A stretch of 64,000 nt of DNA from an uncultured Candidatus Saccharibacteria bacterium (GTDB lineage Bacteria; Patescibacteriota; Minisyncoccia; UBA6257; JAKLIH01). Below are positions 5,198 to 13,390 of the stretch, in pieces. How positions within the stretch are numbered: the first letter of the stretch is position 1; each line of letters begins with the position of its first letter. Below the pieces are notes generated by a model that saw only the letters and a program-made list of their open reading frames with translations, was not told the origin of the DNA and made no database searches. The position numbers and the translations under genes were made by a program. Where the stretch lies: assembly GCA_964618955.1 (NCBI GenBank), contig CAZUBO010000003.1:5250-69249 (forward strand). Direction: 5' to 3'.

Positions 5198-5224
5198 CTA
5201 GGCAGCCTTTTGGCTGCCTAGTTT
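5198..5224 (+). terminator. hisS intrinsic terminator
   Basis: 10-bp stem ctaggcagcc/ggctgcctag, tttt loop, then T-run. Confidence 0.75.
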
Positions 5225-5250
5225 GACTTTTAAATATTCTATGTTATCAT
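5223..5250 (+). promoter_or_regulatory. sigma-70-like promoter
   Basis: TTGACT, 16-nt spacer, TATCAT. No ORF lies downstream before the terminator at 5460-5490. Confidence 0.45.
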
Positions 5251-5256
5251 TGTATT

Positions 5257-5490
5257 AGTACGTTAAAAAAGTGCAAAGAACTTGATTATTCAAGTCAGGC
5301 ACAATGCATGCATATAGATGCTATTTTAACGCTTAAAGGATTTCCTGGCAGTTTAGTACCGGTGAGGGAAAAATGCTAGGGAAGCACAATATCGCTTCAA
5401 GAAACGAAGTGAATATTTATCCACTTCTACAAACACAAAATTTAATCTTCCTTGGAGTAAGCAACCTCGCTTATAGGTTGCTTTTCTCTT
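5257..5490 (+). ncRNA. candidate unclassified structured RNA (about 230 nt)
   Basis: Bounded by the 5223-5250 promoter and the aagcaacct/aggttgctt + T-run terminator (5460-5490). Locally GC-richer than its surroundings, several hairpins, no ORF with an RBS. Confidence 0.3.
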
Positions 5491-10894: not shown

Positions 10895-11881
10895 ATGGAC
10901 GACAAAAATATGGAATGTCCCTTTCTCATTTTTTCTGGTCGTAATTCTCAACCACTAACCGACAAAATTTGCGAATATTTAAAAGGCAAATTGCCTTTTG
11001 ATGTTTGTGGTCAAATCAATGCTGAGAATTTTTCTGATGGCGAGATTAGAGTTCAAATAAAGAACAATGTTCGTGGCAAAGAGGTTTTTGTGGTTCAATC
11101 CACCAATCCTCCAGCTGATAATCTTTTAGAATTACTTATCATTGTCGATGCTTTAAAAAGATCTTCCGCTGAAAAAATAACCGTCATTATTCCATATTTC
11201 GGTTATGCTCGCCAAGATCGTAAGACTCATGGTCGTGAACCAATCACTGCTAAATTAATGGCCAATGTCATTGAATCTGCCGGAGTTAACCGCGTAGTTT
11301 GTGTTGATTTACATGCCGGTCAAATTCAAGGATTCTTTAATGTTCCTATGGATGATTTAAAAACCGTTAAATTGTTTGCTGAACAGATTAAAAAAGATTT
11401 TTCAGATTTTAATAATTTAGTTATTGCTTCCCCTGACGCCGGTGGTGCCAAACGAGCTGAAAAATTAACTTCGTATATGCCCGGAAGTTCTTGGGTTATA
11501 TGTTATAAAAATCGTCACCATGATGGCAAAGATAGCGTTAGCGACTTTAAAATCTTAGGAGATGTTAAAGACAAAGATGTTGTTATTATTGACGATGTTA
11601 CTTCAACTTTTAGTACCATTAAAGGTGCCGCTACCGAGATATTAAATCAAGGTGCCAAAAGTGTTTCGGCTGGTATTGCCCACTGAGCTTGCCCAGACGA
11701 AGTTACCGATAGTCTTAAAGGTCATACTGATATTACTAATATATATATTACTAATACTTGTCCTAGAGCCACTTATCCAATATCATTGGGTGTTGCCAAA
11801 GAAATCGACGTATCCAAATTATTAAGTGAAACTATTCTACGTATTGTTAATCATGATTCTGTATCAGGGTTATTAGAATAA
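10895..11881 (+). CDS. prs: ribose-phosphate pyrophosphokinase
   Basis: Motifs FSDGEIRVQI, YFGYARQDRK, DLHAGQIQGFF and the PRPP loop VVIIDDVTST. Extended past TGA 11684-11686 to TAA 11879. Confidence 0.9.
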
Positions 11882-11936
11882 AAATTCAAAACACAAAAAC
11901 AACGTCCAAAATATGGTCGTTGTTTTTTGCTATCCG

Positions 11937-11965
11937 TTGAAAAAACAAAATTAATATGTTAATAT
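11937..11965 (+). promoter_or_regulatory. sigma-70-like promoter
   Basis: TTGAAA, 17-nt spacer, TAATAT. Confidence 0.5.
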
Positions 11966-11990
11966 ATTAATAGTTTTTGATCAATTACAC

Positions 11991-12236
11991 GGGGAAAAAG
12001 ATATTATATCCTGGCTTAATAAGTCTAGAAAGTGAAGAAGGAGGTAGTTCATCTATTAAAACGCGTGGCAGACATGTCCGTGTAACTCCGAATGGGGAAA
12101 CCTAATAAGCATTATTGCTTATTGCTCTGTCGGGTCTACTGTTTACCGAATTGGTTCCTAGTGGATGCCATATTGAAGAGAGCTTTCGAAATTAGATAAT
12201 ATCTTGCGGTGAGCGAGAGTTCACCGCACCCCCACC
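11991..12236 (+). ncRNA. candidate unclassified structured RNA (about 245 nt) with a tRNA-like end architecture
   Basis: 5' GGGG (11991-11994) pairs with CCCC (12229-12233). The 10-bp helix 11998-12007 pairs with 12196-12205. A 7-bp hairpin gcggtga/tcaccgc (12206-12227) lies between them. Own promoter; terminator at 12247-12277. Confidence 0.4.
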
Positions 12237-12246
12237 TTTAAAATTA

Positions 12247-12277
12247 AGAAGACCAACGTAAAAGGTCTTTTTATTTT
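12247..12277 (+). terminator. intrinsic terminator
   Basis: Stem aagacc/ggtctt followed by a T-run. Confidence 0.6.
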
Positions 12278-12333
12278 TCCCCTATTGAAAAATTACAATA
12301 AATGTAGTAGAATGATTTTATAAAATATTTGAA

Positions 12334-12407
12334 GCCCCCATAGCTCAGTTTGGTAGAGCAGTTGCCTCTTAAGCAAATGGTCGCAGGTTCAAATCCTGCT
12401 GGGGGCA
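12334..12407 (+). tRNA. tRNA-Lys (anticodon CTT)
   Basis: Acceptor gccccca/tgggggc, D arm gctc-agtttggt-agagc, anticodon loop ct-CTT-aa, T arm gcagg-ttcaaat-cctgc. Confidence 0.85.
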
Positions 12408-12448
12408 CAAAAGAAAAAACGCATTGAATGTGTTAAATTAAAAGAACT

Positions 12449-12476
12449 AGGGTTCCTAATATATATTAGGAACCCT
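12449..12476. terminator. perfect 28-nt palindrome, likely a bidirectional terminator
   Basis: agggttcctaatat/atattaggaaccct, between tRNA-Lys (+) and the convergent minus-strand gene. Confidence 0.55.
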
Positions 12477-12488
12477 TTCGAAAATATA

Positions 12489-12827
12489 TTAGATGTCGAT
12501 GATTGTCAACATCTCAATTGTATCAGCGGGGAAGCTTAAATGACACAAAGCTTTAAATTTTTCAAAGATAGTTTTTTCAATAATATGTCGGACAGTCTCT
12601 ATTTCAAAACTATCCATCGCGGTTGGACCTTTTTCTGAATGTAGAATTGTTACAATGTTCGGTTCATAAAATTGAATTTGAAGTTTATGAATCTTTTTTT
12701 GACAATTTATCATAAACTTTTTAAACATTTTCTCCATTTTCTCATTGTCACGTTTGTAAGATAAAGCACAAGGAGACAATGATACACATAATTTTAATAA
12801 ATATTGCTTACCTGGCTCTCCGTCCAT
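12489..12827 (-). CDS. hypothetical protein (112 aa)
   Basis: Start moved to MDGEPG because a GGAGG lies 7 nt upstream; no family recognised. Confidence 0.45.
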   Translation of the reverse strand: MDGEPGKQYLLKLCVSLSPCALSYKRDNEKMEKMFKKFMINCQKKIHKLQIQFYEPNIVTILHSEKGPTAMDSFEIETVRHIIEKTIFEKFKALCHLSFPADTIEMLTIIDI

Positions 12828-12929
12828 AAAAAACCTCCAATTGTTTTGCATAAATTACTAATTTAATACTAGCATATATTTATAAAAATTCAATACAAAA
12901 GGGTTCCCTTAATGGAACCCCAAAATATA

Positions 12930-13187
12930 TTATTTTTTTCATTTTTTCTCCTCGATTGGTTCTAAAATTAATTTCTCTTTTCCACAATTGCAATTGTGAA
13001 AGATATATGAATCTAGAGAATTTATCAAATCTTGATACGGGCCACCATATCCTATTAATAATACCATCTTGCCAGTTACGATATCTGGCAATTGCCAGCA
13101 CTTAATTTTGTCATTGAATTGTTTTCCGCGATTGATTGCCTTGGCCAGTTCTTTTGCAACCTTACCCTTTATCCTCCAAATTTTCAT
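12930..13187 (-). CDS. hypothetical protein (85 aa)
   Basis: GGAGG RBS before MKIWRIKG. TGA 12939-12941 is read through to TAA 12930. A terminator hairpin gggttcc/ggaaccc follows. Confidence 0.45.
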
Positions 13188-13390
13188 TATAAAACCCTCC
13201 AAAAATGAATTTTAACGCCATAAAAGAACAGTGTTCTTATCCTACCACACAGTCCCTCAAAAGACAAGTCTTTCTTTTTTTTTGACTTTTTCTTTTTTAT
13301 TTGCTAATATATCAGTACAAAAATACCCACTGAAAAACAGAGTATTTATTTCGTTTTTAAGCATTAAAGATACTTTTTGAAAAGAATGTT

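Follow-up and report, generated by a model that had tools for sequence, protein, structure and literature searches.

In the genome of an uncultured Candidatus Saccharibacteria bacterium, an RNA gene unit that consists of a predicted promoter, a ~246-nt RNA (11991-12236) and a terminator is located on the plus strand between prs and the tRNA-Lys(CTT) gene (all positions are those of the window, that is, the whole stretch of 64,000 nucleotides that was analyzed). The core of this RNA is a diverged paralogue, or structural copy, of helices H7-H13/14 in domain I of 23S rRNA, in which the bases of the H7/H11-12 junction are selectively retained and the peripheral helices are changed via compensatory substitutions. 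Among the relatives examined, the RNA is found in only one lineage. The interpretation that we favor, with a probability of about 0.45, is that the locus is an accessory, lineage-specific RNA gene of 23S origin which would display the domain I junction as a decoy or binding platform.

Likeness of the core to domain I of 23S rRNA

The relationship to 23S rRNA was examined with two models, namely R1, a covariance model of the 23S sub-domain H7-H13 derived from 10 Saccharimonadales 23S genes, and R2, a model of the whole 246-nt RNA. With all filters off, R1 aligns end to end at 12030-12125 with a score of 47.1 bits (E 5.5e-8, a rough value because the calibration of both models was shortened), and no non-canonical pair is flagged in this alignment; the next best R1 match in the 64-kb window scores 13 bits. 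A sequence-only profile made from the alignment of R1 yields 24.2 bits over 61 nt, so that approximately half of the R1 score comes from structure and the extended alignment. In the LSU consensus of Rfam, a GA-rich junction is followed by the 4-bp H7, hairpins H8 and H9/10, UCCGAAU, GGG-GAAA-CCC (H12), H13 and H14, and the elements of the minimum free energy (MFE) fold of the candidate come in the order of this consensus (Table 1). The counterpart of the core, with which it shares this order of elements, is the H7-H14 portion of 23S domain I (nt ~46-180 in E. coli; ~45-180 in Rfam LSU_rRNA_bacteria), and the 23S-like core probably spans 12030-12125 and extends to about 12187. A putative closure of GAAA with UUUC sits where the 23S sub-domain is closed. 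When the rest of the RNA was compared with 23S using nhmmer, similarity remained confined to the core, and a 9-mer, GUGGAUGCC, in the H14-like arm is estimated to be within chance expectation.

Table 1. Features of the RNA, its transcription signals and its neighbors, in window coordinates
Feature	Positions	Strand	Basis or remarks
prs	10895-11881	+	Upstream neighbor gene
prs intrinsic terminator	11896-11928	+	Hairpin -12.7 kcal/mol, z -6.1, then U-run
Predicted sigma-70-type promoter TTGAAA-17-TAATAT	11937-11965	+	Consensus scan, 9/12 matches, TG before -10
P1, 5' strand GGGG	11991-11994	+	Pairs with CCCC 12230-12233; MFE and centroid
P2, 5' strand, 10-bp long-range helix	11998-12007	+	Pairs with 12196-12205; MFE and centroid
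P3 hairpin GGCUU-AAU-AAGUC	12013-12025	+	Fold; R2 alignment
Possible 4-bp closure GAAA/UUUC	12028-12031 / 12184-12187	+	Read from sequence; putative
23S domain-I-like module	12030-12125	+	Covariance model R1, sequence profile, pair and invariant-base counts
J-GAAGGA junction	Within 12030-12125, first element	+	Module part
H7-like 4-bp helix	~12040-12043 with 12086-12089	+	Module part
H8-like hairpin	12044-12056	+	Module part
H9/10-like hairpin, shortened	12061-12083	+	Module part
UCCGAAU	Between the H9/10-like and H12-like elements	+	Module part
H12-like element GGG-GAAA-CCU	12094-12103	+	Module part
8-bp hairpin containing UAAUAA, H13-like	12104-12123	+	MFE and centroid
Long hairpin at the 23S H14 position, enlarged to 60 nt	12124-12183	+	MFE and centroid; position via Rfam LSU consensus
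P2, 3' strand	12196-12205	+	MFE and centroid
9-bp hairpin, GAGA (GNRA) tetraloop	12206-12227	+	MFE and centroid; no T-loop motif
P1, 3' strand (C run), then ACC tail	12229-12236	+	MFE and centroid pairing of 12230-12233
Intrinsic terminator of the RNA	12245-12278	+	10-bp stem, 9-nt loop, UUUUUAUUUUU; -11.6 kcal/mol, z -4.4
Separate tRNA-Lys promoter TTGAAA-17-TAGAAT and tRNA-Lys(CTT)	12285-12408	+	Neighbors, outside the RNA
tRNA-Lys(CTT) gene	12334-12408	+	tRNA gene finding

Conservation within the core is uneven. When invariant columns are defined over 13 Saccharimonadales 23S sequences, the H7/junction/H12 part keeps 24 of 27 invariant bases, including 20 consecutive ones, UCCGAAUGGGGAAACCUAAU, a stretch that is identical in the 23S consensus of the order, whereas H8, J8/9 and H9/10 keep 10 of 27, with 10 deleted. 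In the model-guided alignment, where pair counts lean toward structure because the alignment was fitted to the model, 22 of the 23 pairs are canonical, the lone A.G is also A.G in all 13 23S sequences and, compared with any single 23S, 5-9 pairs are changed on both sides yet still paired. Taken together, the 47.1 bits of R1, the 22/23 pairs and the 24/27 invariants place the RNA among structural homologues or mimics of 23S H7-H13. Within the kept stretch, the RNA has the ACCUAAU of other families in the order, and the 23S genes of the examined congeners have ACCCAAU; this variant argues against a recent gene conversion with the resident 23S (the 23S gene of the host itself is unassembled).

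The RNA differs from 23S rRNA in being free-standing, with its own promoter, terminator, closing stems (P1 and P2) and GNRA hairpin, as well as in the shortened H9/10, the enlarged H14 and the changes at positions of the H8 loop and J8/9 where the 23S sequences of the order are invariant. Given that bases invariant in all 13 Saccharimonadales 23S sequences are altered, the RNA is not a fresh copy of such a working rRNA. A bona fide 23S gene or a recent pseudogene fragment was likewise rejected: the Rfam LSU model gave no match at the locus even at E <= 10, only 10 of the 27 invariants are present in H8-H10, and the closest 23S among the searched genomes is 83% identical over 41 nt. The R1 score is far under those of real 23S genes, which reach at least 54 bits in the phylum and at least 88 bits in the order. 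BLAST against relatives produced only 20-41-nt matches, all at ~nt 105-140 of real 23S genes. With R2, a search of 11 genomes from the family and 150 from the order retrieved only 23S 5' ends, these matches in other genomes having 19-32 bits and being collinear from ~nt 1; in the R2 alignment, P3 corresponds to the GAUGCCUUGGCAUC segment at the 5' end of the relatives' 23S. As a separate observation, the 23S gene of one congener (L005, G005:C6) carries a ~60-nt insertion at LSU model position ~225, in domain I.

Predicted transcription unit, fold and known RNA families

The earlier note, made from the sequence alone, had described the region as a structured RNA just 5' of tRNA-Lys that lacks a plausible ORF and is bracketed by a TTGAAA-17-TAATAT promoter and an intrinsic terminator. 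This layout is borne out (Table 1); the ORFs in the RNA region do not exceed 42 aa, and none of them has a ribosome-binding site. The promoter was called by consensus match alone and places the predicted start site at ~11972, which implies a leader of ~19 nt ahead of the GGGG. The terminator hairpin was missed by the consensus terminator scan because its loop is 9 nt long. On the two sides of the unit, the prs terminator is also kept in relatives and the tRNA-Lys promoter is conserved in relatives that do not have the RNA, in which the prs terminator abuts tRNA-Lys or its promoter. The sequence TTGAAAAA is found at both edges of the extra DNA.

The MFE of 11991-12236 is -80.9 kcal/mol (z -4.72), and none of 200 shuffled sequences folds as well; together with the terminator, the RNA folds at -91.3 kcal/mol (z -6.08). 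The fold of the reverse strand is unremarkable (z -0.75), so that, with z of -4.7 to -6.1 on the plus strand, the structure is strand-specific. The pairing of the 5' GGGG with CCCC followed by ACC and the 10-bp long-range helix, both proposed in the earlier note, are recovered by the MFE and centroid folds at the positions described, exactly so for the helix, and the UAAUAA indeed lies within an 8-bp hairpin. The hairpin that had been noticed next to the closing helix is present as well, but has 9 bp and a GAGA loop rather than 7 bp. The RNA is known from one sequence, and P1, P2, the H14-like arm and the GNRA hairpin are single-sequence predictions; for the A/U-rich P2, a rough estimate of the probability of chance origin is p ~0.1.

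Searches against 4227 Rfam families, with gathering thresholds on the whole window and with E <= 10 on the locus, returned only tRNA matches; among the families without a match are those that the earlier note had put forward for comparison (tmRNA, RNaseP_bact, 6S, SRP and ROOL/GOLLD/raiA). As had been suggested, the locus encodes a structured non-coding RNA outside the known families which is probably transcribed independently.

Several families were considered individually and rejected. RNase P RNA possesses a P4 pseudoknot and the conserved regions CR-I to CR-V; neither RF00010 nor RF00011 matches at the locus, and the candidate of this genome is on contig C5 (C5:35138-35580), with 64.9 bits and E 5e-20 for the type A model, the cut-off of which is 100, and 27 bits for the type B model. 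Judged by these scores, the C5 sequence is a divergent RNase P RNA. SRP and 6S RNAs (RF00169, RF01854 and RF00013) have no match at the locus, and the RNA is absent from congeners; given this absence from close relatives, it cannot be a housekeeping RNA. The small-SRP model detected no SRP RNA in 12 genomes of the family, including this one, and neither the large-SRP model nor the 6S model gave a match in this genome. Elsewhere in the window, a promoter-to-terminator unit (5223-5490) may encode a divergent SRP RNA. ROOL, GOLLD, raiA, OLE and HEARO were dismissed since none of their Rfam models matched, whether with gathering thresholds or with E <= 10, and a ribosomal-protein autoregulatory leader was dismissed because the RNA lies between prs and tRNA-Lys and is followed by a terminator of its own before any gene is reached.

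Distribution, the tRNA-Lys site and competing explanations

BLAST searches of 40 relatives and of 400 genomes each from the order and the phylum detected no homologue of the RNA; the matches span only 20-65 nt and are all within real 23S genes. R1 was run on 150 genomes from the order and on 150 from the phylum, and apart from the RNA itself it matched only genuine bacterial or contaminating archaeal rRNA genes. Archaeal 16S/23S contigs are present in two Patescibacteria MAGs (G050:C69 and G050:C31; G530:C44), which indicates contamination of these bins. Phage and plasmid collections contained no match to the RNA, and exact-pattern scans of the genome and viral contigs with three different segments of the RNA found nothing. 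Three congeners, whose prs genes are 79-84% identical, do not carry the RNA at the syntenic site, and neither do contigs from metagenomes, ENA and JGI in which the identity of prs reaches 95%; when prs orthologues were collected from GTDB genomes, JGI metagenomes, ENA and Logan contigs, the RNA was found only in identical copies of the strain. Since the identical locus is present in two other run assemblies (L090 and L091), which are possibly source runs of the MAG itself, a one-off misassembly is unlikely.

The site itself is variable. Next to prs, several congeners have the tRNA-Lys(CTT) gene in inverted orientation, and the small orphan ORFs that flank it differ (11880-13210 in the window; loci L020-L022, L049-L052, L088 and L089), which points to a recombination hot spot. 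The convergent ORF at 12489-12851 has one homologue, with 81% identity, on an ENA contig (L088, sample ERZ27249449) where tRNA-Lys has the same orientation as in this genome; this contig ends inside the tRNA, so that the upstream region is beyond its edge. No Pfam, PHROG or PADLOC match was obtained for this ORF, and its low-confidence structural model (pLDDT 60) has a ferredoxin-like topology and no significant PDB match. At another locus (L049), the flanking ORF, of ~95 aa, is unrelated to it.

The host genome (0.79 Mb in 44 contigs, 98% complete) lacks an assembled 23S gene. This bacterium reads TGA as a sense codon, most likely for Trp (translation table 4), judging from the genes and tRNAs: ORFs in the window are about twice as long under table 4, with genes intact only when TGA is a sense codon; at a prs position where one congener has TGA, this genome and a second congener have TGG; and a tRNA(UCA) with a tRNA-Trp-like body (C6:18095-18172) is present alongside tRNA-Trp(CCA). 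A literature search yielded no report of UGA as a Trp codon in Saccharibacteria.

The main rival of the decoy reading, considered somewhat less probable than it, is that the RNA is a non-functional passenger, i.e., foreign or old 23S rDNA that was captured at the tRNA-Lys hot spot and is slowly decaying there, either untranscribed or transcribed accidentally from a duplicated -35 box of the tRNA promoter. The restriction to a single lineage, with absence even from the metagenome relative that has a 95% identical prs, speaks for this scenario, as do the inversion of tRNA-Lys among congeners and the differing small ORFs at a site where debris could collect, and the TTGAAAAA sequences at the two edges. 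However, such a passenger is weakened as an explanation by the conservation pattern, the compensatory changes, the strand-specific fold and the transcription signals: the decay is non-uniform (24/27 invariants in the junction vs. 10/27 in H8-H10), helices are preserved through double changes, none of the searched 23S genes comes closer than 83% over 41 nt, and closing helices that are foreign to 23S occur along with a matched promoter and terminator in a 0.79-Mb genome.

It is improbable that the RNA acts in cis, as a structured 3' UTR of prs or as a processing or stabilizing element in the upstream part of the tRNA-Lys transcript. The element is on the same strand as both neighbors, and read-through of a weak terminator is possible, but a strong prs terminator precedes the promoter of the RNA, tRNA-Lys keeps its own conserved promoter after the terminator of the RNA, and relatives express both genes without it.

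Even less support exists for the divergent tmRNA or other tRNA-like RNA that the earlier note had entertained. Under this interpretation, the GGGG/CCCC-ACC closure and the adjacent hairpin, placed where a T-arm would be, would imitate an acceptor/T minihelix on which RNase P and the CCA-adding enzyme act, and stacking of the 4-bp P1 on the 9-bp hairpin would result in a minihelix of ~13 bp with a 3' ACC. A tmRNA is normally encoded by one gene per genome and contains a tRNA-like domain in which an acceptor stem is combined with a T-arm/T-loop. The RNA resembles it in the pairing of 5' GGGG with 3' CCCC-ACC, in the hairpin beside the closing stem and in its size class. The tRNA-like layout nevertheless does not hold up: ARAGORN identified neither a tmRNA nor a tRNA-like gene at 11937-12277, Rfam was negative as well, and the supposed T-arm is a GNRA hairpin that has no T-loop. 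A G.U at stem position 3, a reading frame for a tag and a pseudoknot pattern are all lacking, and the predicted start site is ~19 nt upstream of the GGGG. The genuine tmRNA of this genome is on contig C14 (C14:13918-14269, 149.6 bits, tag VKQYQPAYALA*), so that identity with tmRNA (RF00023) is refuted, and the broader tRNA-like reading appears very improbable.

The least plausible alternative, that the host 23S has lost H7-H14 and the RNA supplies them in trans as a ribosome component, would fit the lack of an assembled 23S gene in the host genome and the nature of the module as a self-contained sub-domain of domain I, but the 23S genes of congeners have intact H7-H14 and no accompanying RNA, the relative with the 95% identical prs has no RNA at the site, and the altered order-invariant bases of H8 and J8/9 and the cut-down H9/10 are unexpected in a working part of the ribosome.

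Possible role and significance

Under the decoy reading, the RNA would be transcribed and kept for displaying the H7/H11-12 rRNA junction in trans, with the core enclosed by the RNA's own stems (P1, P2 and the GNRA hairpin), and would thereby offer a decoy or binding platform to a protein whose usual target is this part of nascent 23S rRNA. Such a partner might be found among the proteins of the tunnel exit and of early assembly (uL24, uL29 and uL23), or might be an assembly factor or else an enzyme or toxin directed at rRNA. A recent assembly study places H7 with uL24 and uL22 in the earliest folded 50S core and reports that the H5, H8-16 block is organized by uL29 (with H6) and uL23/uL29 (with H9) (PMC12274283); given these roles in early assembly of domain I, uL24, uL29 and uL23 would be natural candidates.

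The divergence from every examined 23S, combined with the absence from near relatives, suggests that the RNA was acquired horizontally, at the recombination hot spot next to tRNA-Lys. In such a scenario, the RNA would have been subject to constraints of its own over a long period before it reached this genome. A broader and rather speculative extension, to which we assign a low probability, is that free-standing, horizontally mobile decoy RNAs derived from rRNA domains may form a class in the ultra-small CPR/Patescibacteria, the present one titrating an early-assembly or tunnel-exit ribosomal protein and thereby tuning ribosome production, or absorbing an rRNA-targeting toxin or phage factor.

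Two kinds of known systems are relevant for comparison. The L1, L10, L20 and S8 operon leaders and the 23S-methyl motif are cases in which a non-ribosomal RNA reproduces a protein-binding rRNA junction. Such autoregulatory leaders of ribosomal proteins are short and act in cis, from the 5' UTR of the mRNA that they regulate, whereas the RNA described here is stand-alone, terminated and ~246 nt long, has no downstream coding gene and contains a whole multi-helix sub-domain. The eukaryotic 5.8S, the chloroplast 4.5S and the fragmented organellar rRNAs are naturally separate pieces of LSU rRNA, which this RNA resembles in being a small RNA homologous to a 23S segment. However, these pieces replace their segment and keep the invariant bases, whereas the present copy has lost some of them and the 23S genes of congeners are intact.

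To our knowledge, rRNA mimicry has so far been known mainly in the form of short cis-acting operators in ribosomal-protein mRNAs. If the decoy reading is correct, a stand-alone, multi-helix mimic of 23S, with an exact junction core and drifting arms, would represent a different use of the same principle, and would clearly exemplify the origin of a small-RNA gene in a fragment of rRNA. The RNA is hosted by a Saccharibacteria genome of less than 0.8 Mb, in which non-coding DNA is scarce. Even if it turns out to be untranscribed debris, it documents the capture of rRNA fragments at hot spots adjacent to tRNA genes. The finding raises the question of whether rRNA decoys may serve episymbionts in controlling the assembly of their ribosomes or in protecting them.
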